11,242 nt of DNA from the IMG/VR virus record IMGVR_UViG_2657245509_000010. One strand, written 5' to 3'. Each line of letters opens with the position of its first letter. Position 1 is the stretch's first letter. Shown piece by piece: positions 66 to 11,242 of this stretch. The notes below the pieces were generated by a model, which was given only the letters and a program-made list of their open reading frames with translations, ran no database searches and was not told where the DNA came from. A program made the position numbers and the translations under genes. The stretch is from a virus (taxonomy: Duplodnaviria > Heunggongvirae > Uroviricota > Caudoviricetes).

Positions 66-347
66 ATGACAGAAGCCGAACTACTGGGATTAATCCGCCG
101 CGTCGCCGGAATCAGCCAGCAGCATGACGAACAGGCCACACAGCCGGACAGCGTGACCGCTGAAAATTATGTGCGTGTTGTAGCGGAAGTGATGCGCCGT
201 GATGGTATAGAACTTAATGGCGTTGATATGCGCAACATACGGAACCGCGTTCTTGAAATGCTGGCCTACAATCGCCGCGTTGAACTGTATCGGGAGAAAG
301 AAAAAATAACGTACCACTGGAAGAAGCCGGAACGGCTGCGGCGGTAA
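66..347 (+). CDS. Hypothetical protein (93 aa)
   Basis: ORF with a good Shine-Dalgarno ('tggggg') 5 nt upstream of the ATG at 66; no recognisable family by eye. Confidence 0.5.
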   Translation: MTEAELLGLIRRVAGISQQHDEQATQPDSVTAENYVRVVAEVMRRDGIELNGVDMRNIRNRVLEMLAYNRRVELYREKEKITYHWKKPERLRR

Positions 348-868: not shown

Positions 869-1031
869 CTGTTTTTAGCACTTTTTGCAGTGTGGGTTGT
901 TTAATTAAATCAATGGGTTGCCTTGCTGTGGTGATAAAAGGACATATTTTATCAATTAGTGTTTTTTGCCGTTTCATAATGTTTCAGATTGTTCATTATA
1001 TTTTTGATTATAAACAGATTTGTGATTTTCC

Positions 1032-1100
1032 TTGTTCCAGCTTGTTTCACGTTGTAGCCCTTTGTGCAACGATCGGTGTAGTTAATGGTGTAGTTAATTG
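1032..1100. repeat. Copy 2 of the ~65-bp direct repeat with tandem GGTGTAGTTAAT x2 (1075-1098), directly abutting the integrase start
   Basis: Direct sequence comparison with 808-868. Confidence 0.55.
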
Positions 1101-1120
1101 TGATGACCGGAATCAAAATT

Positions 1121-2350
1121 ATGAGCAGAGCACTTAACAAACTGAGCGATACACAGCTGAGGAAAATCAACGGCACACCCGCCCAAAAAACAGCCTTTCT
1201 TAATGACGGTGGAAACCTGAGCGTCAGGCATTCAACCAGTGGCCTTTTAACCTGGTATTTCACTTACAGGGCCGGAACGGGAAGGGGGGCACCACCGGAA
1301 CGCATTAAGCTGGGAAATTATCCTGATCTGAGCCTGAAATCAGCCAGGGAAAAAGCCGCCCAGTGTCGCGCATGGCTGGCAGAGGGGAAAAATCCACGTC
1401 ATGAGCTTAATTACACCGTACAGGAAGCGTTAAAGCCGGTAACGGTTGGCGATGCGCTCACCTACTGGCTTGAGTCGTACGCAAAGGAAAACCGCGTGGA
1501 TTATGCCGCCCTGAAAAAGCGCCTTAATAATCACGTAATACAGCACATTGGTGCTATGCCGCTGGATAAATGCGAGCTACGGCACTGGCTGGCCTGTTTT
1601 GACCAGGTGGCAAAGCGAACGCCTGTTACTGCCGGATTCTTGCTACAGACGTGCAAACAGGCGCTTAAGTTCTGCCGGAGGCGGCGCTATGCAATCAGCA
1701 ACGTTCTTGATGATATGAGTGTGGCGGACGTTGGGAAAAAACCGGATATAAGCGAGCGTGTCTTAAGCACCAAAGAACTGGGCGAATTATTGCAGGCACT
1801 GGACAAAAAAATATTCTCCCCCTACTACATCGCGTTAATCCGCCTCCTGATTGTGTTCGGATGCCGGACGGTAGAACTGAGGTTATCGGAGATCAGCGAG
1901 TGGGATTTTACCGAAATGCTCTGGACCGTTCCGAAGGAGCACAGCAAAACGAAGGTAGCCATATTCCGGCCTATACCGGAAGCAATACTGCCGTTCATCA
2001 CGCAGCTGGTGGAGCAGAACAGGCACACGGGCTTATTGCTGGGGGAAGTGAAACAGGAGGCCAGCGTATCGCAGTATGGAAGATTAGCGCACAGGAGGCT
2101 TAATCACCCTCACTGGTCACTGCATGACATCCGGCGCACCTTTACAACCATGCTGAACGATTTAGGCGTTGATCCGCATGTCGTGGAGCAGCTTACAGGC
2201 CACCAGATGCCAGGAATGCAGCGAGTTTATAATCATTCCCGTTATCTGGATGCGAAACGCAATGCGCTGGATATGTGGACGGAGCGGTTAGGGATACTGG
2301 CGGGAACACATGAAAACGTAACCACGCTACCAGTAGCCAGAAGAAAATAA
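1121..2350 (+). CDS. int: Tyrosine site-specific integrase with arm-binding N-terminal domain (P4/PICI-type)
   Basis: N-terminus 'LSDTQLRKINGTPAQKTAFLNDGGNLSV...GNYPDLSLKSAREKAAQCRAWLAEGKNP' fits the arm-DNA-binding domain pattern; C-terminus has 'HDIRRTF' and 'RVYNHSRYL' as in catalytic tyrosine recombinase domains. Start is ambiguous (ATG at 1100, 1103 or 1121); the end is firm. Confidence 0.9.
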   Translation: MSRALNKLSDTQLRKINGTPAQKTAFLNDGGNLSVRHSTSGLLTWYFTYRAGTGRGAPPERIKLGNYPDLSLKSAREKAAQCRAWLAEGKNPRHELNYTVQEALKPVTVGDALTYWLESYAKENRVDYAALKKRLNNHVIQHIGAMPLDKCELRHWLACFDQVAKRTPVTAGFLLQTCKQALKFCRRRRYAISNVLDDMSVADVGKKPDISERVLSTKELGELLQALDKKIFSPYYIALIRLLIVFGCRTVELRLSEISEWDFTEMLWTVPKEHSKTKVAIFRPIPEAILPFITQLVEQNRHTGLLLGEVKQEASVSQYGRLAHRRLNHPHWSLHDIRRTFTTMLNDLGVDPHVVEQLTGHQMPGMQRVYNHSRYLDAKRNALDMWTERLGILAGTHENVTTLPVARRK

Positions 2351-2367
2351 TTTTTTTCGTGTTTTTT

Positions 2368-2383
2368 CAGTATGCGCATACTG
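2368..2383. repeat. Perfect 16-bp palindrome CAGTATGCGCATACTG in the int-alpA intergenic region
   Basis: Read directly. Confidence 0.6.
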
Positions 2384-2404
2384 GATATGCGAACAGATAC
2401 AACG

Positions 2405-2443
2405 TGCAACAATGAGCAACAATGTGGAACAACTACGAACAAG
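2405..2443. repeat. Short tandem direct repeats (GCAACAATG x2, then GAACAAC and GAACAAG); candidate protein-binding array
   Basis: Read directly in the 364-bp int-alpA intergenic region. Confidence 0.5.
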
Positions 2444-2714
2444 AGGCGAAAAAGCGTACGGATTTATAAGTAGCTGATTTTTAATGTGTTACTGGTTTTT
2501 TATACACTAGCGAATCACTCTTTAAAGAGCGAGAAAAAAGGCATGGAACAATATTTTATGCCTTTGTATTAACATGAATTTAAAAGATTTTATTCTTACT
2601 TTTTCATTTTCTGTAAATCATACATCCTCAGTATTTGCCATTCATCACTCTAGCGGGAACAATACGACACAATAAGACACCTGATGACTCTTTAAGAAAC
2701 GAAAGGGGGCAATA

Positions 2715-2903
2715 GTGTTAAGCACTGATCGGTTTATACGTGAAAAAGAATGCGAAAAACTAACCGGCCTTAGCCGTACGTGTCGCTACCGCCTGGAAAA
2801 GGCCGGACAATTCCCATCACGTCGTAAACTTGGCGGTCGTTCCGTTGGCTGGTCTTTATCCGAGGTTCTGGCCTGGAAGGATAGCTGCAAGGCAGTTCAT
2901 TAA
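2715..2903 (+). CDS. alpA: AlpA-family transcriptional regulator / excisionase-like protein (GTG start)
   Basis: 'LTGLSRTCRYRLEKAGQFPSRRKLGGRSVGWSLSEVLAWK' matches the AlpA/phage-excisionase HTH pattern; strong SD 'agggggc' 5 nt upstream of the GTG; located just after int as in Gram-negative PICIs. Confidence 0.85.
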   Translation: MLSTDRFIREKECEKLTGLSRTCRYRLEKAGQFPSRRKLGGRSVGWSLSEVLAWKDSCKAVH

Positions 2904-3049
2904 TCACGCTGGCGGCACACAGCCGCCACACATCAATCATCTGAACACAGAGCTATAACCATGAAGATTGAATATACGCCAGAACGTGGGCGGGGATTCG
3001 TTCGCCCTGGTGAGACTGGAAAACCACAAAATTGGGGTTTTTCAGGCAT

Positions 3050-3078
3050 AAAAAAAGCGGCCCCGAAATGGAGCCGCC
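3050..3078 (-). terminator. Probable rho-independent terminator for minus-strand transcripts (GC stem then T7 on the minus strand)
   Basis: Plus strand 'aaaaaaagcggccccgaaatggagccgc'; on the minus strand a gcggc/gccgc stem is followed by TTTTTTT. Confidence 0.45.
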
Positions 3079-3172
3079 TTTCTGAACAGATAACCCGCTG
3101 CGCCTTATGTGTATATGATCCCAAACATAAGCACGGGGATGATAGCCGCTATCAGGCTGGTGGGCAATGCTA

Positions 3173-3361
3173 TCAGTCTGGTTCAGTTCGTTGCCATACC
3201 TGCAATGGGCGCGTTTCCCTGTACTCTTTAAGGAATTGCTCAAGGGCAAAAGCACATGGCGCGAATCTTTCTGATTCATGCTCTATCTTTCTGCGCCGTC
3301 TTTTCCGTGCCGGTGATAATGTTTTGGTCAATTCTTTATCGGTCATTGTGTTGTCCTGCAT
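3173..3361 (-). CDS. Hypothetical small basic protein, downstream of the RHH gene on the minus strand (start uncertain; possibly ATG at 3346)
   Basis: ORF-track ORF; arginine/lysine-rich segment 'ARKRRRRK'; no strong SD, so low confidence. Confidence 0.3.
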   Translation of the reverse strand: MQDNTMTDKELTKTLSPARKRRRRKIEHESERFAPCAFALEQFLKEYRETRPLQVWQRTEPD

Positions 3362-3403
3362 AGCAATGCGCCGTAATACCTCACACCACGGCGCTGATAG
3401 TTT

Positions 3404-3577
3404 TTATCCTTTGGGTTCTATGCCGCGTTGCTGTAATTCTTTGCGGAGAACGCGTTTAATCCAAGTGGCTAAAGATGTGTCGCCATCGGCCTTAGCAGCT
3501 TCTTCTAGCTGCGCTCTGAAGTCTTCCGGTAATCGCATTTGGTATGGAGGCGAACGTTTTTCTAATGGTGTTGACAT
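3404..3577 (-). CDS. Arc/MetJ-type ribbon-helix-helix transcriptional repressor (57 aa); not in the ORF track
   Basis: Minus-strand translation 'MSTPLEKRSPPYQMRLPEDFRAQLEEAAKADGDTSLATWIKRVLRKELQQRGIEPKG' fits the Arc-family pattern (beta-strand 'YQMRLP', then two helices). Divergent from the rightward operon, with palindromic operators at its 5' end. Confidence 0.75.
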   Translation of the reverse strand: MSTPLEKRSPPYQMRLPEDFRAQLEEAAKADGDTSLATWIKRVLRKELQQRGIEPKG

Positions 3578-3645
3578 GGTAATTACCCTTTATTGCTATA
3601 CCTACATGGTAATTACCATTGTACTTGCCATTACACAAAAATCAA
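3571..3645. promoter_or_regulatory. Divergent control region with two copies of the palindrome GGTAATTACC (3578-3587, 3608-3617) and a minus-strand promoter (-10 TACAAT 3618-3623, -35 TTGATT 3640-3645); a perfect TTGACA on the plus strand at 3571-3576
   Basis: Both palindromes are preceded by 'ACAT' and are 30 bp centre-to-centre. One abuts the RHH start codon and the other abuts the putative -10, the classic autorepressor layout. The plus-strand -10 is weak. Confidence 0.6.
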
Positions 3646-3707
3646 CGCCCCGCAGTGCTGGGAACACATACGGGGCGTCTAACCAACAACGTAAACTAGG
3701 AGCCGTT

Positions 3708-3905
3708 ATGGTTGCCGTAAATCATATACCACACCTTGTACACACACAAACGGCCTTTGTGTGGCGTTTTCTGGCACTGAGTGCCGGAGAATCTCAAATC
3801 ATCCACGTAACCGCCTGGACGGAACGCGAAGCGCGTAACCGTTGCCCGTCCGGTTGTGTTGCTGTATTTGCCGCCCGTATTCGTCAGGAGGTGCGCCATG
3901 ATTAA
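3708..3905 (+). CDS. Icd-like (host cell division inhibitor-like) small protein, 65 aa
   Basis: 'FVWRFLALSAGESQIIHVTAWTEREARNRC...VFAARIRQEV' resembles the Icd-like proteins of enterobacterial P4-like and PICI elements (from memory). RBS 'aggag' 6 nt upstream. It is the true gene inside the chimeric 314-aa track ORF. Confidence 0.6.
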   Translation: MVAVNHIPHLVHTQTAFVWRFLALSAGESQIIHVTAWTEREARNRCPSGCVAVFAARIRQEVRHD

Positions 3906-4110
3906 TCTGTCACTTACTGACCTTAACCGCATTCAGTTTCGTGAGAAATTCACAGGGCAGCTACTGGTCAATGTGGATAAAGGTCGCGTGGTGTGTAATT
4001 ACCACTTACCAGATGAAGCAATTGTCGCCACAAGGGAATCATTACAGGAAATCACAAAACGTGCCGGAATGATTAACACGAATATTCAGGGGATGCTTTA
4101 TGCACAATAA
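3898..4110 (+). CDS. Hypothetical protein (70 aa)
   Basis: ATG overlaps the stop of the upstream gene (translational coupling); no family recognised. Confidence 0.5.
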   Translation: MINLSLTDLNRIQFREKFTGQLLVNVDKGRVVCNYHLPDEAIVATRESLQEITKRAGMINTNIQGMLYAQ

Positions 4111-4564
4111 AACCACACCGGACGCAGCCGCCGAAGCCATCAAAACGCTGATGCACGCGCTGATTGATATTTCTGTTATCGCGGACAGGGCACATAAGCA
4201 CGCCACCAGCGAAACAGAATATGCCGGTGCTTTCGTTCCTCACTCACTGGCTGTCATGCAATTTAGTGCTGATACGGCGCTGAATGAGGCCAAAGCTATC
4301 CTGATTGCTGATTGTGAAAATGGGGGGGTTATGCGTGATGATCGTTTTAATTCCCTGAAACAGGAATTTTCCGGCGTTCCTGATGATGCGGCTGATGCGC
4401 TTTCGTCAATGCCAGAACTTATTAGAGCGGCTTTTTTCTTACTTTCCACGAGAGAATATAAATCAACGGGGCTTGATGTACTGAATATCGCCGCCGATTA
4501 TGCGGAATATGTGGCAGAGGCGCGTTATAGAAGAAAATTTCCTGAGGATGTAAGCCATGCGTGA
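4100..4564 (+). CDS. Hypothetical protein (154 aa)
   Basis: Start overlaps the preceding stop; no recognisable motifs. Confidence 0.6.
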   Translation: MHNKTTPDAAAEAIKTLMHALIDISVIADRAHKHATSETEYAGAFVPHSLAVMQFSADTALNEAKAILIADCENGGVMRDDRFNSLKQEFSGVPDDAADALSSMPELIRAAFFLLSTREYKSTGLDVLNIAADYAEYVAEARYRRKFPEDVSHA

Positions 4565-4790
4565 TATTTACCACCAAACAATAGACCGCGCATTTCTTGC
4601 ACTTTCTCACAGTGAAAACATGATGGAAATATTGCGCATATGGCTTGAAACACTTGGCGACAATGAACGCGACAAACAAAAATCAAGAATTGCCACGGCA
4701 TTAATAACGCTTCTTGAGCCTGTAATAATGGAACTGCAAGAAATAGATCTATTGCACGACAGATATAAAGAACAGCACACCGGAGAATAA
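4557..4790 (+). CDS. Hypothetical protein (77 aa)
   Basis: 8-nt overlap with the upstream gene; SD 'gagga' upstream. Confidence 0.55.
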   Translation: MRDIYHQTIDRAFLALSHSENMMEILRIWLETLGDNERDKQKSRIATALITLLEPVIMELQEIDLLHDRYKEQHTGE

Positions 4791-4795
4791 AAATA

Positions 4796-5095
4796 ATGAA
4801 ACTTAAATATTCTGGCTTAACTGCCAGTGGCAACACTCACCCTAAATTTACGCGCGGTGATATTTACCGCGACCAGTACGGCGGCACGGTAATGATTAAG
4901 GGCGTGGAAGAACGGCGCGTAACCTACCGCCGTGAAGGTTACGAATATGATTGCGTGATGCCTGTTTATCAGTTCCGGCGTGATTTTTCTCTGGTACAGA
5001 CCGCGCCGCATAACGTGCCCACCAGCAACGCCAGGGCACGGGCAAACATCCAGAAGCTGAAAACCATGGTTAACGGATTCAGGGGCAAGAAATGA
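4796..5095 (+). CDS. Hypothetical protein (99 aa)
   Basis: SD 'ggaga' about 10 nt upstream; stop overlaps the start of the replication ATPase gene. Confidence 0.6.
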   Translation: MKLKYSGLTASGNTHPKFTRGDIYRDQYGGTVMIKGVEERRVTYRREGYEYDCVMPVYQFRRDFSLVQTAPHNVPTSNARARANIQKLKTMVNGFRGKK

Positions 5096-6492
5096 AAAGC
5101 GCACCGAACTTAAAAAAACAGCCTTACGACAAGATGACCGAAGTCATTATTTTTGCGGGTAGTGATGCCTGGGCACATGCGAAACAGTGGCAGGAACAGG
5201 ACGGGCGACTGGCTGGCGATAATGTGCCTCCCGTTGTGCTGGCTGATGATCAACTGGATGAACTGGCAGAACTGAGAATCATCGACGAGGGGCGCTATTG
5301 TGTCCGGCTGTACAAGGCAGGCCACATCAGGCCATCAAATATTAATGCCATTGCGCACAAGCTGGCGGCGGCGGGTGTAACTGATGCGAATTATTACCCC
5401 GAAGGGATGCACAGCCATATGCGGGAGAACTGGCGCGAATACCTGGAACGGGTGCGCGGGAAAGAGCCGGCGGAAGAAAAAAACCACCAGCGAAAAACCA
5501 CGCTACCGATGAGCGTTGGATCTACCGGATACGACACGCAACTGGATTACGTGGTTAAGGGGATTATTCCGGCGGTATCGCTATGCAGCATATACGGGGC
5601 TAGCGGGTCCTATAAATCATTCCTTGCCGGATCGTGGGCGTGCCATGTTGCCACTGGTCGCCAGTGGGGAGGCCGCAGGGTTGCACATGGTGCGGTTCTC
5701 TATGTGGTTGGTGAAGGCGGTATAGGTGTTCCGCGTCGTGTAAAAGCCTGGGAGGTTGTGCACGATGAGCAGGTGAAAAATCTGTATCTGGTAAACCGCC
5801 CCATCTTTCCGGCTGCCCCGCTTGATGTTGATGAAATGGTTATCGCTGCCCGTCAGGTGGAGCGGGAAACGGGTAAACCTGTACGCATGATTATTCTGGA
5901 TACGCTGGCGCGTTGCTTTGGTGGGAATGATGAAAATGATTCCCGTGATATGGGGGCGTTTATCCGTGGTTGTGACGAACTGAAACGACGCACAGGGGCC
6001 ACGGTGCTGGTGGTTCACCATTCCGGCAAGGATGAGACGAAAGGCGCGCGCGGTTCCAGTGCATTTCGTGCTTCGCTGGATGCTGAATACCGGATACGCA
6101 GGGAGGACGCAGGAAGCGAAGCGCTGGTTATCTCATGCACCAAAATGAAGGACGCGGAGGAACTCAAAGAAGCCGCATATGACTTACGCGTGGTGGAGCT
6201 TTTTACCGACGCTGACGGTGAATTAATCACGTCGCTGGTGGTGGTGGATGATCCGCGCCCTCCTGTTGAACTGGAGCGCATCGAGGAGGCAGGGAACAAG
6301 ACGGAAAACCATACCGCGCTATGGGGGTGCATCCGTTCACGCACACAGAACGGCGACAAGTGCACGATCCCGCTGTTACGTGATGACATGAAAAAGCTGG
6401 GGTATGAAATGAAAAACTTCCGGCGCTGGCTGTACAAGCTGGAAAAAGATGGGGTTATTCGTATCGATGGGGATGATGTAGCGCCGCTATAA
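5092..6492 (+). CDS. RepA/DnaB-like RecA-fold replication ATPase (satellite replicase-helicase) with a probable C-terminal winged-helix domain
   Basis: P-loop-like 'GASGSYKS', Walker-B-like 'MIILDTLARCFGG', and 'VLVVHHSGKDETKGARGSSAFRASLDAEYRIRRE' typical of RepA-like helicases; C-terminus 'WLYKLEKDGVIRI' looks wHTH-like; an iteron array lies immediately downstream. Confidence 0.8.
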   Translation: MKSAPNLKKQPYDKMTEVIIFAGSDAWAHAKQWQEQDGRLAGDNVPPVVLADDQLDELAELRIIDEGRYCVRLYKAGHIRPSNINAIAHKLAAAGVTDANYYPEGMHSHMRENWREYLERVRGKEPAEEKNHQRKTTLPMSVGSTGYDTQLDYVVKGIIPAVSLCSIYGASGSYKSFLAGSWACHVATGRQWGGRRVAHGAVLYVVGEGGIGVPRRVKAWEVVHDEQVKNLYLVNRPIFPAAPLDVDEMVIAARQVERETGKPVRMIILDTLARCFGGNDENDSRDMGAFIRGCDELKRRTGATVLVVHHSGKDETKGARGSSAFRASLDAEYRIRREDAGSEALVISCTKMKDAEELKEAAYDLRVVELFTDADGELITSLVVVDDPRPPVELERIEEAGNKTENHTALWGCIRSRTQNGDKCTIPLLRDDMKKLGYEMKNFRRWLYKLEKDGVIRIDGDDVAPL

Positions 6493-6684
6493 AAGTGAGG
6501 AGCAAAAGCGAGGGGGATAGAAAGAGGGCCAAAATTAGCCCGCTCTCCCTCACTTTTCGACCTGTATACATCCTCAAAAGTGAGGGGTAAAAAAATACTT
6601 ATGAAACACACACATAGAAAAACCGAAAATCCCAACTGCGACGAAGTGAGACGCTTGAAAAAGTGAGGCGAAAAAGTGAGAGGT
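6491..6684. repeat. Iteron array (at least six copies of AAGTGAG(G/A) in both orientations); putative replication origin
   Basis: Copies at about 6493, 6549 (inverted), 6579, 6643, 6660 and 6674, immediately 3' of the replication ATPase gene. Confidence 0.65.
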
Positions 6685-6692
6685 TGCGAGAA

Positions 6693-6944
6693 ATGACCCA
6701 AAAACGCAGAGACAGAACAGAGCCAAAATATAAAGCGTTAGACATGACTGAGCACACCTTAAAGGTGGCAATCAGAACGATAGACCGCCACACGCGGGAA
6801 GGATACGCGAAGGAACATCCCGACCTGATAAGCGCATTCATGACCACGGCGGCGGCAAACTTTGCCACGCTGACAGAACGGGAGATTGCCGAAGCGGAAC
6901 AGGTAACAACCATCAACGTTAAAACCGGAGAGGTGGAATTATGA
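6693..6944 (+). CDS. Hypothetical protein (83 aa; alternative GTG start at 6663)
   Basis: ATG with SD 'gagagg'; the upstream in-frame extension would overlap the iterons. Confidence 0.5.
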   Translation: MTQKRRDRTEPKYKALDMTEHTLKVAIRTIDRHTREGYAKEHPDLISAFMTTAAANFATLTEREIAEAEQVTTINVKTGEVEL

Positions 6945-7351
6945 CGGCACAGATAGCCGCTTACGGGCGGCTGGTGGACGACCCGCAGGTAAAACAGACC
7001 AGCAAGGGCACACCGATGACGCTGGCGCGTATGGCGGTATCTTTGCCATGCAGCCAGGCACAGGACGGACAGGCGACGTTATGGTTATCGGTCATCGCAT
7101 TTGGCAAACAGGCCGGCTTCCTGGCTAAACATCAAAAAGGCGATGTTGCCAGCGTATCCGGCACGATGCAGGTAAGCCAGTGGACCGGACAGAACGGAGA
7201 AACGCGGCAGGGCTGGCAGGTTATCGCAGACAGCGTAATCAGTGCCCGCGCGGCACGTCCAGGCGGGAACAGACGCAAAACCACAGGCACACAGGGTAAT
7301 CAGCCACCAGCGGGAGGCGATGACCCTTACGGTGATGATATTTCGTTCTGA
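6941..7351 (+). CDS. ssb: Single-stranded DNA-binding protein (SSB-like OB fold with acidic C-terminal tip)
   Basis: Glycine/proline-rich linker and C-terminal 'DDPYGDDISF', comparable to E. coli SSB '...DDDIPF'; OB-fold-like N-terminus; start overlaps the upstream stop. Confidence 0.75.
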   Translation: MTAQIAAYGRLVDDPQVKQTSKGTPMTLARMAVSLPCSQAQDGQATLWLSVIAFGKQAGFLAKHQKGDVASVSGTMQVSQWTGQNGETRQGWQVIADSVISARAARPGGNRRKTTGTQGNQPPAGGDDPYGDDISF

Positions 7352-7361
7352 GGGGGTGACG

Positions 7362-7634
7362 ATGGTACATGACCGCATAGCGGAGGAACTGGAGGCGAAA
7401 GGCTTTTACCGGAGGGCGGCGGCGCGATGGGGTGAAGTCATGCAGCTGGTGGAGACAGACAAGGAACGGCATCACATCACGATGCGACGGCTGGAATGTT
7501 CAAGGAAGGCACAGAGGGCACCGGAGCCGCCGGATAATTTCGGAGACCTGAAAAAGGCAGTCGATCGCACTTATGCCGAAATGGGTATAGATGGTGCTGG
7601 TGATGAAATATGGCGCAATTACCAGGACAGCTAA
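7362..7634 (+). CDS. PerC-family transcriptional regulator-like protein (90 aa)
   Basis: 'AEELEAKGFYRRAAARWGEVM' matches the PerC/Pch hallmark (LExKG-W/Y-RRAA-xW). The true start is the ATG at 7362 with SD 'gaggggg'; the longer track ORF (7242-) would overlap ssb. Confidence 0.6.
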   Translation: MVHDRIAEELEAKGFYRRAAARWGEVMQLVETDKERHHITMRRLECSRKAQRAPEPPDNFGDLKKAVDRTYAEMGIDGAGDEIWRNYQDS

Positions 7635-7640
7635 TCAAAC

Positions 7641-7664
7641 AGCCGGAGAAATCCGGCTTTTTTT
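7641..7664 (+). terminator. Rho-independent terminator (GCCGGA-GAAA-TCCGGC then T7)
   Basis: Stem-loop plus T-run directly after the perC-like stop. Confidence 0.8.
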
Positions 7665-7760
7665 GCACCAGTTGAAACGGTATGGCGCATTACCGGGTTT
7701 TCGTCACGGTCAGGCATAGTTACTATCTGAAACAAACAGACACAACAGAGGAAAAAAACA

Positions 7761-7985
7761 ATGCCGATGAAATTTGATGAGATATTAAAACAGCGTGATA
7801 AATACCATGCTGACAACATGGAGACGATGAGCATCAATGATTACCGCGCATTCCTGGAGACGGGCGCACTGATTGAAAAGGATCAGCATGGTTTTGTGAG
7901 ATGTGCTCTATCCGGTGAAATGCTGGCGGTAAATCCTGAACAGATAGATGCATTGATAGAATTTCTGAAAGAGATCAGAGACTGA
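7761..7985 (+). CDS. Hypothetical protein (74 aa), an isolated transcription unit
   Basis: SD 'gagga' upstream; flanked by terminators at 7641-7664 and 8005-8075. Confidence 0.55.
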   Translation: MPMKFDEILKQRDKYHADNMETMSINDYRAFLETGALIEKDQHGFVRCALSGEMLAVNPEQIDALIEFLKEIRD

Positions 7986-8004
7986 GCCAGCACACAGCAC
8001 ACAT

Positions 8005-8027
8005 AGCCGGAGCAATCCGGCTTTTTT
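8005..8027 (+). terminator. Rho-independent terminator (GCCGGA-GCAA-TCCGGC then T6)
   Basis: Variant of the same hairpin as at 7641 and 10278. Confidence 0.75.
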
Positions 8028-8033
8028 GCGCCC

Positions 8034-8075
8034 AAAAAAAGCCCGATAAGGTCAGAGGGTTCTTATCGGGCTTTT
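8034..8075. terminator. Second hairpin, possibly bidirectional (A7, 10-bp stem GCCCGATAAG/CTTATCGGGC, T4)
   Basis: Read directly; A-run upstream and T-run downstream. Confidence 0.6.
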
Positions 8076-8148
8076 GCATATGAGGTTTTTGGATGCACTG
8101 GCGTTCGTGATCGGGATAATCATTTCATAATTTGCAACATAACTCAAT

Positions 8149-8201
8149 ATCATTGCATAAAATGCAATTCTGATTATAATCAGGACTGGATAAACATCCA
8201 G
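8149..8201 (+). promoter_or_regulatory. Putative promoter of the capsid operon (-35 TTGCAT 8153-8158, 16-bp spacer, -10 TATAAT 8175-8180) embedded in three consecutive palindromes
   Basis: Palindromes ATTGCAT-AAA-ATGCAAT, CTGATTATAATCAG (contains the -10) and CTGGAT-AAAC-ATCCAG; first promoter-like signal after the double terminator. Confidence 0.55.
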
Positions 8202-8236
8202 TTATGATTTTTTTAGTCGAAGAGGAATTTCTTACT

Positions 8237-8443
8237 ATGGCTGAAGAGAAAAAAAGCGGTGTTTCGGTGTACATAAGCCCCGAAATCGTGGAGGTGCTCA
8301 AGCAGCGCCACAAAAAAAACTATGAAGCTGGCGTTGCGGCTGGACTGGATCCGCTGATGACGCCGGAGCCGTCGATAGGTTCACTTGTACGCTCTTATTT
8401 ACTTGCGGCGCTTGGGATGCATAAAAATTATGGGGGTGAATAA
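8237..8443 (+). CDS. Hypothetical protein (68 aa) translationally coupled to the major capsid gene (alternative start 8204)
   Basis: Stop and start overlap as TAATG at 8441-8445; position corresponds to where scaffold or head-accessory genes sit in head operons. Confidence 0.5.
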   Translation: MAEEKKSGVSVYISPEIVEVLKQRHKKNYEAGVAAGLDPLMTPEPSIGSLVRSYLLAALGMHKNYGGE

Positions 8444-9498
8444 TGGCAGGCAAAGCAACGGCACTTAACACTAACCAGCTTTTCATGTACCTGAATCGCG
8501 GGGATATTGCGGATTTTAAATTCAGCCCTCTGTTTACCACGCTGTTTTTCCCGAACGTGGCGACATTCAGCACGCAAAACATCATGCTGGATACCCTGGA
8601 CATTGAAGAAGTCACCATGTCGGCGTTTTGTTCGCCTATGGTGGGTAGCCAGGTTCAGCGCGATAAAGGGTACGAAACCAGCACAATCAAACCTGGCTAC
8701 ATGAAGCCAAAGCACGAAATCGATCCAACGAAAACCATCATGCGCATGGCTGGAGAAGATCCGGCACAGCTTAACGACCCTACCTATCGCCGTATGCGCC
8801 TGATTACTGGCAACATGCGCCGCCAGATAAACGCCATTAAGGCACGCGTGGAATGGCTGGCGGTGAATGCGGTAACGACCGGAAAAAACATCATTGAGGG
8901 CGAAGGCATAGAACGCTATGAAATCGACTGGAAAATACCGGAAAACTGCATCATAGAGCAGGCCAAGGGTAAAAAATGGTCCGAGCAGGATAAAGACATG
9001 CACGACCCAATCTATGACATCGAGCTTTATGCTGATCAGGCTGGTTGCCCCGCAAACGTCATGATTATGGGCGCTGAGGTATGGCGCACATTACGCAGCT
9101 TTAAAAAATTCCGTGAGCTGTACGATCTTTCCCGTGGTTCAGAATCCGCCGCCGAACTGGCCTGTAAAAACCTGGGCGAAGTGGTGAGCTTTAAAGGCTA
9201 TCTTGGTGATCTGGCCCTTATCGTCTATTCCGGCAAATACACTGACAGCGATGGTACCGAAAAATATTTCCTTGAGCCTGATTTGCTGGTCCTGGGTAAC
9301 ACCAACAATAAAGGGCTGGTGGCCTATGGTGCGATAATGGATCAGGAAGCGGTAAGAACGGGCGCAACACAAAACATGTTTTACCCGAAAAACTGGATTG
9401 AGGACGGCGATCCGGCGATTGAGTACGTGCAGACACACAGTGCACCGCAGCCGGTACCGGCAGATATTCGCAAATTTGTTACCGTCAAAATTGGTTAA
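8443..9498 (+). CDS. Major capsid protein, lambda gpE-like (HK97 fold family)
   Basis: Blocks 'KFSPLFTTLFF', 'PGYMKPKHEIDP', 'DPTYRRMRL', 'FRSFK', 'YPKNWIEDGDPAIEY' align with lambda gpE 'KFDPLFLRLFF', 'PGYVKPKHEVNP', 'DPAYRRRRI', 'FRSFK', 'YPKNWVTTGDPAREF' (recalled sequence). 351 aa against about 341 aa for gpE. Confidence 0.9.
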   Translation: MAGKATALNTNQLFMYLNRGDIADFKFSPLFTTLFFPNVATFSTQNIMLDTLDIEEVTMSAFCSPMVGSQVQRDKGYETSTIKPGYMKPKHEIDPTKTIMRMAGEDPAQLNDPTYRRMRLITGNMRRQINAIKARVEWLAVNAVTTGKNIIEGEGIERYEIDWKIPENCIIEQAKGKKWSEQDKDMHDPIYDIELYADQAGCPANVMIMGAEVWRTLRSFKKFRELYDLSRGSESAAELACKNLGEVVSFKGYLGDLALIVYSGKYTDSDGTEKYFLEPDLLVLGNTNNKGLVAYGAIMDQEAVRTGATQNMFYPKNWIEDGDPAIEYVQTHSAPQPVPADIRKFVTVKIG

Positions 9499-9510
9499 CG
9501 GGGGGATTCT

Positions 9511-9846
9511 ATGGACACTCCATACATTGAGTTATTTGCAGGCAGTCAGCAGGTATCCACGACGTTGGTACATTTTGCCGCTGATGCTGGCGTTATTCAG
9601 GAATTTACCCCGCTGATGCTGGCAGACAATGGCGAGTTTAAGCCGTGGGATGGTCAGGAATCTGGCAAGGCTGTTTATCTGACCTCGTACCCTGTGGACA
9701 CGTCAAAGCAGAAATCAGCACAGTGTTACAAGACGGGGATATTCAATATTGCCGCCGTTAACTGGCCTGAGAGCGTCGACACCGATGCGAAAAAATGCGC
9801 CGCCTTTGCGGGTTCCGGCGTATCCGTTCAGCCGCTGGCCCGATAA
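9511..9846 (+). CDS. Head decoration protein, lambda gpD-like
   Basis: 'TPLMLADNGEFKPWDG...KKCAAFAGSGVSVQ' aligns with gpD 'TPLMLDTSSRKLVAWDG...KKRTAFAGTAISIV'; 111 aa against 110 aa. Confidence 0.85.
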   Translation: MDTPYIELFAGSQQVSTTLVHFAADAGVIQEFTPLMLADNGEFKPWDGQESGKAVYLTSYPVDTSKQKSAQCYKTGIFNIAAVNWPESVDTDAKKCAAFAGSGVSVQPLAR

Positions 9847-9858
9847 GCAGGGGGAACG

Positions 9859-10272
9859 ATGGCAACGAATGAAAGCATCATGACGCTACCGCTGGCGAGT
9901 AAATTTAAAGTCGAAGCGCGGGCAATGGCTGACAGAGGTTTATCAACCTATGAGGCCGTATATCAACTAAACAAACTGGAAGAGCAGGACAAGCCGTGCG
10001 CTGATGCGATTATGGCGCTTCATGAGCATAAAGACTATCAGCCGCTGTTGCGTGCAATGGCAAACGTGCCTTGTATCGATGTTGGTACGGCTAAAAGCAT
10101 CCTTAGCATGACCATAGAGCAGGAACGTCCGAAGGTTGCGCCGGAACTTACCGCAGCCTTTGAAAACTTTATGGACATGCACAGCCCGCAAGCCGTATCA
10201 GCTGGCATGGCATACGATGGCAGAAACCAGGGCGATGACGGCGACATCGATCGCATACTGAAAACCATCTGA
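9859..10272 (+). CDS. Hypothetical protein (137 aa) between the decoration gene and cos
   Basis: Good SD 'aggggga'; no resemblance to lambda FI/FII by eye. Confidence 0.6.
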   Translation: MATNESIMTLPLASKFKVEARAMADRGLSTYEAVYQLNKLEEQDKPCADAIMALHEHKDYQPLLRAMANVPCIDVGTAKSILSMTIEQERPKVAPELTAAFENFMDMHSPQAVSAGMAYDGRNQGDDGDIDRILKTI

Positions 10273-10277
10273 GACAA

Positions 10278-10300
10278 GGCCGGAGAAATCCGGCTTTTTT
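10278..10300 (+). terminator. Rho-independent terminator (GCCGGA-GAAA-TCCGGC then T6), third copy of the hairpin family
   Basis: Immediately 5' of cos. Confidence 0.8.
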
Positions 10301-10368
10301 ACGGGTCCTTCCTGGAATTATGGCCCGTTACGGGGCGGCGACCTCGCGGATTTTCGCTATTTATGAGC
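10301..10368 (+). other. cos site (cosQ-cosN), lambda-like; predicted 12-nt cohesive end GGGCGGCGACCT at 10333-10344
   Basis: 'acgggtccttcctggaattatggcccgttacg|gggcggcgacct|cgcggattttcgctatttatga' against lambda 'ACGGGTCCTTTCCGGTGATCCGACAGGTTACG|GGGCGGCGACCT|CGCGGGTTTTCGCTATTTATGA' (from memory); located about 135 bp upstream of the Nu1-like gene. Confidence 0.85.
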
Positions 10369-10438
10369 CTTTTCAGGGTGGTGGTGGTGGTTTTGTTGTT
10401 TGATCTATCTTTATGAATGAAAAGGGAAAGATGCAAGC

Positions 10439-10476
10439 AATACACCAACCTGAAGCAGTAATTAAGTTGGTGTATT
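10439..10476 (+). promoter_or_regulatory. 11-bp inverted repeat AATACACCAAC-N16-GTTGGTGTATT abutting the terS start codon; candidate element-specific cosB R sites or translational control hairpin
   Basis: Read directly; sits where lambda has the inverted R2/R1 Nu1-binding sites before Nu1. Confidence 0.5.
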
Positions 10477-10477
10477 A

Positions 10478-11020
10478 ATGAAATCTCATCTGATGAACAA
10501 AAAAAACATGGCGAAAAGCTGCCGTGTAAGTGCGACAGCGTTCGACAAGTGGGGAGTAACTCCCGTTGAGCGTAAAGGCCGTGAGGCGTTTTATGATGTT
10601 GCCAGCGTGATAGAAAATAGGGTTAACAATGCAATTAGCCAGCTTATAAACGACAAAGGCGAGATTGACGATGATGAACTTTTACGAGTCAGGATCAGAT
10701 TACTGACAGCACAGGCAGAGGCGCAGGAACTTAAAAACGATCGCGATCGCGGTGACGTGATTGATACTGAGTTTTGCCTGTACGCGCTTTCAAAGCTGGC
10801 GAGTCAGATTTCATCAATCATGGACAGCCTCCCGCTTACTATGCAAAGGAGCTTCCCACAGATTACCCCCGCCATGCTGGACAGGCTTAAAAGGGAAGTG
10901 GTTAAAGCCTGTAATGCCAGTGCCAGAGTTGCCGACAACCTCCCACAGATACTGGCTGATTACTTGAAAGAAACAACCGGAAACGTACCGGAAAAGTTGC
11001 TACAGAAGAAAGGCGAGTAA
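10478..11020 (+). CDS. Terminase small subunit, lambda Nu1-like
   Basis: 'LTAQAEAQELKNDRDRGDVIDTEFCLYALSKLASQISSIMDSLPLTMQRSFP' aligns with Nu1 'LTRAQADAQELKNARDSAEVVETAFCTFVLSRIAGEIASILDGLPLSVQRRFP'; N-terminus 'NKKNMAKSCRVSATAFDKW' against 'NKKQLADIFGASIRTIQNW'. 180 aa against 181 aa. Start may be the ATG at 10493. Confidence 0.9.
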   Translation: MKSHLMNKKNMAKSCRVSATAFDKWGVTPVERKGREAFYDVASVIENRVNNAISQLINDKGEIDDDELLRVRIRLLTAQAEAQELKNDRDRGDVIDTEFCLYALSKLASQISSIMDSLPLTMQRSFPQITPAMLDRLKREVVKACNASARVADNLPQILADYLKETTGNVPEKLLQKKGE

Positions 11021-11039
11021 CAGACGCGCAATTATTGAA

Positions 11040-11242
11040 CAAAAATGAGAAAGGATCTGATAATGGCATTTTCTGGCTAAAATGCCTCGTGTCAGATCCT
11101 TTCTTTTTTTAATATTTTCATTGTTAAACAGTCTGTTACAGAGAAGAAGATCGGATCTGACTTTTGCCGGAAAATTCTCATAAACAGATAAAAACCGCGA
11201 GGTCGCCGCCCCGTAACGGGCCATAATTCCAGGAAGGACCCG
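11040..11242 (-). other. Second cos site in inverted orientation (cosN reverse complement at 11200-11211) with a full-length lambda-like cosB arm; cosQ part is the terminal repeat
   Basis: Reverse complement reads 'cgggtccttcctggaattatggcccgttacg|gggcggcgacct|cgcggtttttatctgtttatgagaattttccgg...tcttcttc...', tracking the lambda left end 'CGCGGGTTTTCGCTATTTATGAAAATTTTCCGG...TTCTTCTTCG' further than the 10301 cos does. Confidence 0.8.
11048..11110. terminator. Nested inverted repeat AGAAAGGATCTGA...TCAGATCCTTTCT followed by T7; likely terS terminator and, on the other strand, lambda-like cosB R2/R1-type sites
   Basis: 13-bp arms at 11048-11060 and 11093-11105 with an inner GGCATTTT/AAAATGCC hairpin; the reverse complement aligns with the lambda cosB region 'GAAAAGAAAGGAAACGACAGG...CCTCTGTCGTTTCCTTTCT'. 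Confidence 0.6.

Follow-up and report, generated by a model that had tools for sequence, protein, structure and literature searches.

PICIs are vehicles for the spread of virulence and defence genes among enterobacteria. For a given island, the phages able to mobilise it are largely unknown. Those of the EcCICFT073 family interfere strongly with the packaging of their helpers. For EcCICFT073 itself two cos sites have been published (Fillol-Salom et al. 2018, ISME J, PMC6092414; Fillol-Salom et al. 2019, Mol Cell, PMC6739421), of which the upstream copy is termed cos1 and the inverted downstream copy cos2 (Fillol-Salom et al. 2019, PMC6739421, sequence supplement). cos1 is needed for the transfer of the island and is read by a complex of RppA and TerS. 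cos2 is functional but dispensable: plasmids carrying it are transduced by lambda and phi80 at a low level, its deletion raised the lambda-mediated transfer, and transfer of the island was abolished only by the double deletion of cos1 and cos2 (PMC6092414, PMC6739421). The interference maps to RppA and not to cos2, and deletion of the gpE-like and gpD-like genes of the island left it unrelieved. The published model for the family, with Rpp and phage TerS acting at cos1, leaves the second site unexplained, and the review by Murialdo and Feiss treats cos1 only. These three sources describe the island cos sites as lacking any evident phage cosB or R repeats, and the cosB of cos2 was called completely divergent from phage cosB by its authors (PMC6092414, PMC6739421).

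Here we analyse the inverted cos of a related island, contained in a window of 11,242 bases (by window we mean the whole stretch of DNA that was analysed). A sequence-only reading of the window had described this site as an inverted cos of helper type with a full lambda-like cosB, in which the 3' end of a convergent terS takes the place of Nu1. We refer to the site as cos-down and to a second cos upstream of terS as cos-up.

Results

The window and its island

Many E. coli O157:H7 chromosomes contain a segment with 100% identity to the window. Direct comparison with EC4115 identified it as a rotated circular form of the integrated element: window positions 940-11242 correspond to NC_011353.1 1535498-1545800 and positions 1-949 to 1545769-1546717, with the att junction at ~940-949, where ~10 bp are common to both mapped segments. 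The element lies between roxA and phoQ, and Fillol-Salom et al. 2018 (PMC6092414, Table S1) include the EC4115 interval among their PICIs, with a size of 11.2 kb. The element codes for an integrase, an AlpA-like regulator, a RepA-type helicase, SSB, PerC, a 137-aa protein, a gpE-like major capsid protein, a gpD-like decoration protein, the 180-aa Nu1-family TerS and a 93-aa protein. The gene order matches that of the CFT073 island gene for gene, with rppA (144 aa) filling the terS slot there. The major capsid and decoration genes are located at window positions 8443-9846, and EcCICFT073 has both of them too.

Positions 1-32 duplicate positions 11211-11242, and by this 32-bp terminal overlap cos-down wraps onto the beginning of the window. 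Base 1 is bp 1 of the cohesive end of cos-down, and base 11242 coincides with the outer boundary of a perfect inverted repeat of 48 bp. The window ends may be breaks of the assembly graph at this repeat, or the result of a deliberate rotation, rather than virion termini; an artefact of assembly or processing is just as likely an explanation of them as virion ends.

Architecture of the inverted cos

In a global alignment, the minus strand from position 11242 to about 11020 is colinear with the left end of lambda. cos-down contains cosQ, cosN, an I2-like block, R3, I1, R2 and R1 (Table 1), and each of these subsites is at most one base off the lambda spacing. Its cosQ is found ~30 bp upstream of cosN, as in a lambdoid cos. 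The I1-like element between R3 and R2 resembles an IHF site by its sequence; an I1 annotation is carried by the phage 434 record. The blocks 'aattttccgg' and 'tcttcttc', named in the sequence-only reading, are real and align to lambda. The extent given there (11040-11210) omits the cosQ arm (11212-11242), with which cos-down reaches the end of the window.

Table 1 Features of cos-down, cos-up and terS in the window. Positions within cos-down are counted on the minus strand with bp 1 at 11211.
Feature	Window position	Strand	Position in cos (bp)	Sequence, lambda counterpart or basis
93-aa gene	66..347	+		Comes after cos-down across the window wrap
cos-up (cosQ, cosN, island-specific cosB)	10302..10477	+		Self-comparison and lambda alignment; homologue of EcCICFT073 cos1
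cosN of cos-up	10333-10344			GGGCGGCGACCT
48-bp perfect inverted repeat	left arm 10302..10349, right arm 11195-11242			Self-blastn and alignment
terS, full-length Nu1-family small terminase, 180 aa	10478..11020	+		Pfam PF07471
Junction	11021..11046			CAGACGCGCAATTATTGAACAAAAAT, between the terS stop and R1
Hairpin, candidate intrinsic terS terminator	11047..11111	+		RNA fold
cos-down, complete inverted lambdoid cos	11047..11242	-		Lambda alignment, register, phage blastn, comparison with CFT073 and the published cos2
R1-like	11047..11062	-	150-165	TATCAGATCCTTTCTC; lambda R1 at 151-166
R2-like, inverted relative to R3 and R1	11089..11104	-	108-123	AGAAAGGATCTGACAC; lambda R2 at 109-124
I1-like (IHF-site-like)	11126..11138	-	74-86	TAACAGACTGTTT; lambda TAACTTAATGTTT at 74-86
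R3-like	11148..11163	-	49-64	AAGTCAGATCCGATCT, followed by TCTTCTTC; lambda R3 at 49-64
Block	11179-11167	-		GAGAATTTTCCGG; lambda alignment
cosN, cohesive end	11200..11211	-		GGGCGGCGACCT; exact match to lambda bases 1-12
cosQ-like	11232..11242	-		CGGGTCCTTCC, aligned to lambda ACGGGTCCTTTCC; the lambda cosQ string is published

The box TCAGATCCNNTCT is present in three copies in the window, all of them inside cos-down, compared with a chance expectation of 0.08; none of 200 shuffles gave three copies. A significant alignment to a known cosB, on which the sequence-only reading had staked its claim, was obtained with blastn against 50,697 phage records, where 91 lambdoid records match cos-down at 72-83% identity and with E-values down to 1e-17. 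In comparison with lambda, the 12-nt cohesive end is identical, cosQ is present, R3, I1, R2 and R1 are at most one base apart in position and R2 is inverted in both, whereas the R box is TCAGATCCNNTCT in cos-down and CGTTTCCNTTCT in lambda, and the identity over cosB is 60%. The two sites also differ in what follows. While lambda continues into Nu1, with its ATG at bp 191-193, cos-down runs into the convergent terS, whose stop codon (11018-11020) lies in complement at bp 192-194. This is the replacement that had been claimed, and no forward Nu1-type ORF was found on the same strand just past R1.

The terS gene and a candidate terminator

The island TerS scores 82.6 bits against Pfam PF07471 (cut-off 30) and is 36% identical to lambda Nu1 from end to end and 44% identical to N15 gp1. 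The alignment with lambda Nu1 extends through the C-terminal TerL-binding region. Among solved structures, RppC included, no sequence match to the island TerS was found. The assignment of the 180-aa product as an Rpp protein was rejected because it has no match to RppC and aligns end to end with lambda Nu1, and identity with RppA was rejected because the CFT073 RppA occupies the same slot but is a different protein of 144 amino acids.

On the terS strand, the R1 and R2 arms of cos-down can form a hairpin, in which 11047-11062 pairs with 11090-11105 and encloses an inner hairpin (GGCATTTT/AAAATGCC). The outer stem of 16 bp and the inner stem of 8 bp are followed by a run of seven U. The fold of 11021-11125 has a free energy of -35.4 kcal/mol (z = -6.2), and none of 200 shuffles was equally stable. 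A scan with a simple terminator pattern did not call this hairpin because its loop exceeds the limit of the scan (8). From its sequence, the R1/R2 inverted repeat with the U run is a plausible candidate for the terS terminator. In relatives without cos-down the 93-aa gene begins only 11 nt past the terS stop, and the two genes are probably co-transcribed there. Therefore, the cos-down cassette may be polar on the 93-aa gene.

The upstream cos

The view of cos-down as an orphan cos overlooks the conserved cos-up, the homologue of EcCICFT073 cos1. In the self-comparison of the window cos-up was recognised over 10302-10377. The cosQ-cosN arms of cos-up and cos-down make up the 48-bp perfect inverted repeat. 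After ~bp 35 cos-up departs from lambda (GGTGGTGGTGGTGG...), and R boxes are absent. It has the invariant boxes GGTGGTGGTTTTGTTGTT and ACACCAACCTGAA, the first at ~bp 51-68 from cosN; the boxes fall within window positions 10380-10400 and 10455-10470. ACACCAACC is also counted as a cos-up box, and an inverted repeat (ATACACCAAC/GTTGGTGTAT) stands directly ahead of terS. We regard the boxes and the inverted repeat as candidate binding sites of the island TerS. For Rpp-type islands, an R3 equivalent was proposed by Murialdo and Feiss at the location of the cos-up boxes, and EcCICFT073 cos1 has ACACCACCACCAC at the same place as the cos-up box. Probably, cos-up is both the primary site and the one cognate to the island TerS.

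The cosQ-cosN arm of cos-up in the window (CTTCCTGGAATTATGGCCCG, 10302-10332) is of the type usual in the downstream copy, and most relatives have CTTTCCGGCATATGGACCCG upstream. The presence of CTTCCTGGAATTATGGCCCG upstream points to an exchange of sequence between the two inverted cos copies. In several related loci (L010, L062-L071, L081, L085, L090) the cosN of cos-up differs (GGGCGTCAGGCGCG, GGGCGGAAGGCGCG) with an unchanged island-specific cosB. This pattern points to cosN tracking the helper TerL and cosB the island TerS.

Variation among related islands

The comparison of related islands covered 80 loci from IMG/VR with a relative of the island TerS (80-100% identity), 73 of which could be classified downstream of terS. 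A scan of genome contigs with the TerS protein gave no confirmed relatives. The first 45 residues of TerS from MNKK, which comprise the winged helix-turn-helix, are essentially invariant across the loci. cos-up is nearly always present, and the region after its cosN is strongly conserved even where cosN differs. Downstream of terS the picture is varied: 16 loci have a site with AGATCC-type boxes as in the window, 13 a site of the CATGTCGTTTC type, two a 21-like site, nine a truncated site and 33 none. cos-down is thus lacking in 45% and truncated in 12% of the related islands and, being absent or truncated in 57%, it appears to be dispensable. All 33 loci without cos-down keep cos-up, and their 11-nt spacing between terS and the 93-aa gene is also seen in two complete genomes. 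The truncated copies have lost cosB and half of cosN. In the nine clean truncations (L052-L061) the terS stop is directly followed by CCGCCGCCCCGTAACGG, that is half of cosN and cosQ, with the whole cosB gone.

Where present, the cassette is an accessory module of ~275 bp that separates terS from the next gene. Its junctions are identical in all copies, and the stretch between the terS stop and R1 is common to all of them, whatever the cosB class. Each class has a phage counterpart over cosB: the AGATCC class of the window (class a) matches the AGATCC phage L151 best (77%), the CATGTCGTTTC class (class b) PhiR5_1 (71%) and the 21-like class (class c) an O157 21-type prophage (80%). The cos-up sites are at background (43-56%) against phage cosB. 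Copies of class a are 97-100% identical across islands whose TerS proteins differ by up to 11%. A second class of island TerS (~50% identical) combines a 21-like DNA-binding domain and 21-type R3/R2/R1 upstream with an AGATCC cassette downstream. In the loci of this class (L105, L108, L109, L122, L123, L129) the terS 3' end and the junction are as in the window. Because these are common to both TerS classes, the part of terS encoding the C-terminus and cos-down appear to form one recombination module.

Hence, the R-box class of cos-down does not covary with the DNA-binding domain of TerS, whereas the cosB of cos-up does. Since the cosB class of cos-down changes or vanishes with an identical TerS domain, cos-down is not the own site of the island TerS. 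Since it matches phage cosB classes, 'helper-type cos', the term used in the sequence-only reading, remains its best description. On the strength of these sequence comparisons, cos-down is a complete phage-type cos of defined specificity. It is separated from the terS gene that belongs to it, stands in inverted orientation, is optional and is swapped as a cassette.

Phages with the same R-box class

The lambda-like R2/R1 pair that had been proposed is confirmed in its inverted-repeat layout and its register, but the boxes are of the AGATCC class and not of the lambda type. This class is that of lambdoid prophages with a SerU-LTIIb-type Nu1, and lambda itself is therefore not the matching helper. 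Among deposited phage records, the partial prophage SerU-LTIIb is the only one to span the whole cosB, with the boxes GCAGATCCGTTCTTCT, AGAAAGGATCTGGCAG and TTGAGATCCTTTCTTC. When IMG/VR was searched by pattern for the AGATCC R2/R1 pair, at least 120 stretches were obtained, 80 of which were read. Sixty of these are phage-type, with a forward Nu1 gene starting 19-45 nt after R1; 13 are island-type, with a reverse terS ending 32 nt after R1; and seven fell in neither group. The Nu1 of the phage-type stretches is closest to SerU-LTIIb Nu1 in 57 cases (64-98% identical) and to lambda Nu1 in three. A lambda-type cosN is joined to an AGATCC cosB in 19 of the 60 phage-type contigs, and over 170-200 nt these are 78-82% identical to cos-down, with a single one at 71%. 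In the one phage contig checked for this (L151) the subsite positions are the same as in cos-down. Of 5426 complete E. coli genomes, 223 (~4%) contain an AGATCC phage cos together with Nu1.

An alignment to phage cos regions, suggested earlier as a way to the best-matching helper, thus leads to SerU-LTIIb-like lambdoid prophages (78-82%) and not to lambda (cosB 60%). The cos sites of the prophages of this type (KU052038; L151, L117, L098; E. coli OkiPb01694) share the R-box class of cos-down, and many share its lambda-type cosN. In these prophages cos is followed by Nu1 and then by the large terminase gene, whereas cos-down is detached from these genes and inverted. The SerU-LTIIb-type Nu1 is only ~31-34% identical to the island TerS. 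In SerU-LTIIb (L008) and in one island cassette (L089) a different cosN (CACCGGGGGT...ACGCGC) is joined to AGATCC-type cosB; as the window has a lambda-type cosN with the same type of cosB, cosN and cosB evidently reassort.

Other candidate helpers compared by their cosB were rejected, as the identities of the lambda-type (lambda and the Stx1 phage) and of the 21-type (CFT073 phage 4 and the O157 Z866 prophage) are within the range of 53-60%. N15 was compared by its TerS protein, and its match is at this level only. The two O157 prophage cos sites that were read are lambda-type (Stx1 phage) or 21-type and neither is AGATCC-type, so the present host may hold no cognate helper.

Discussion

On sequence comparison, cos-down is the positional homologue of EcCICFT073 cos2. 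The two islands belong to the same family, use the same roxA/phoQ site and have the same slot between the specificity gene and the 93-aa gene. The two-cos arrangement is repeated around rppA, where the inverted cos is the published cos2 sequence, and this shares with cos-down its orientation, the junction on the cosQ side and the lambda-type cosN. The differences concern the neighbouring gene, which is a full-length Nu1-family terS in the window and rppA in EcCICFT073, and the cosB. While that of cos-down is a canonical R3-I1-R2-R1 array, belongs to the AGATCC class and has a clear counterpart in phages, cos2 carries CCGGACAT repeats, of which only those at R3 and R2 are in register. Three such repeats are found (L006 16100-16310): the first and the second, at ~bp 47-63 and 107-120, are mutually inverted as in the R3/R2 register, and the third, at ~bp 137-150, is oriented like the second. 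None of the six phages compared comes close to cos2 (48-52% identity). Since two inverted cos sites are already published for the EcCICFT073 family, cos-down is not new in kind. What appears to be undescribed in the literature consulted is a second site in the form of a canonical R3-I1-R2-R1 cosB, the swapping of several phage cosB classes independently of the island TerS or Rpp, and the covariation of the cos-up cosB with the specificity protein.

We infer that cos-down would function as a packaging site cut by terminase and as an entry point for a helper. We consider it probable that it represents a modular second cos of helper type, through which the terminase of a cognate helper gains access to a PICI of the EcCICFT073 family. 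This would give the island two entry points. cos-up would be read by the Nu1-like TerS of the island, which recruits a hijacked helper TerL, and cos-down would be read directly by the terminase of a cognate helper, in competition with the phage's own cos. At cos-down, a helper TerS that reads AGATCC boxes would assemble the unmodified terminase, the helper TerL would nick cosN at 11200-11211, and concatemers of the island would be packaged leftwards, terS end first, up to the next copy in the same orientation. For lambda it is established that packaging terminates at a cos only if cosQ is encountered before cosN. Owing to the inverted orientation, packaging begun at one cos would not be ended at the other, and the packaged DNA should for this reason be a whole number of genomes. 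Four island units make up 44.8 kb or 92% of lambda, which would be enough for a head of lambda size. In addition, the R1/R2 inverted repeat with its U run, read on the terS strand, probably ends the transcription of terS. As to lateral transduction, the source paper states that cos phages do not perform it and contains nothing on these cos sites.

A different origin of cos-down would be a scar of a past recombination with a helper at cos, which is now neutral or mildly harmful and whose effects, such as the termination of terS, are incidental. The site is missing in 33 and truncated in nine of the 73 related islands, and 11 nt separate terS from the 93-aa gene in the relatives without it, for which reason cos-down is to be seen as an insertion. 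A relic would also fit with the increase of lambda-mediated transfer on deletion of EcCICFT073 cos2, with the lack of a matching cosB in both O157 prophage cos sites read and with the strong hairpin and U7 on the terS strand. Nevertheless, we hold this explanation, though it keeps real weight, to be rather unlikely. Decay predicts scattered damage to the R boxes, whereas the cassette is found either intact or cleanly deleted. Furthermore, all seven subsites are intact and at most one base off the lambda register in three independent cosB classes, the 97-100% identity of class a copies is maintained among islands with TerS proteins up to 11% different, and the same inverted placement recurs next to three specificity genes, namely those of both TerS classes and rppA.

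It is very improbable that the island's own TerS reads the R boxes of cos-down, although the site adjoins terS, has the classic layout of three R boxes bound by Nu1-family proteins and stands opposite a cos-up without obvious triple repeats. This cognate role was rejected for lack of covariation: one and the same TerS DNA-binding domain is followed by three R-box classes or by none, the 21-like TerS has an AGATCC cassette downstream and 21-type boxes upstream, and it is the cosB of cos-up that is invariant along with the TerS domain. Moreover, AGATCC boxes precede a phage Nu1 in every phage-type stretch read, with SerU-LTIIb as the closest in 57 of 60. We also see little probability in a role as an interference decoy, in which a helper-type cos on a multicopy island soaks up terminase or triggers unproductive cutting and so lowers the phage yield. 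A helper terminase should indeed bind a phage-type cosB, and PICIs of this family are strong inhibitors of helper packaging, but in EcCICFT073 this effect maps to RppA rather than cos2, and packaging from a cos that is complete and has its cosQ correctly ordered would be productive and not abortive. Any such effect would be a by-product of the helper entry point and not an alternative to it.

Going further, we tentatively suggest a packaging with two keys, for which we see slightly less than even chances. cos-up would be locked to TerS or Rpp, and cos-down would be a hot-swappable helper cos that tracks the circulating lambdoid phages by recombination and sets the helper range. If this is true, cognate helpers package the island without its specificity protein, and EcCICFT073 cos2 is explained. 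If cos-down works as a direct entry point, its cosB class would be a predictor of helper range that can be read from the sequence. The contrast between cos-up and cos-down is moreover a natural experiment on how terminase specificity is encoded.

Packaging by a copy of the helper's packaging signal is known from other satellites. The cos-type SaPIs (SaPIbov5, and SaPIbov4 with two putative cos) are packaged in this way, as is the satellite P4 with its P2-type cos. In the related satellite HE-PICI 11capE, in which 258 bp are 90% identical with the cos of its helper, the copied helper cos likewise serves packaging. The island in the window resembles these elements in its copied cos. However, the SaPIs, 11capE and P4 use a copied cos alone, whereas the island adds its own TerS and an island-specific cos, so that the copied cos would be a second and optional key.
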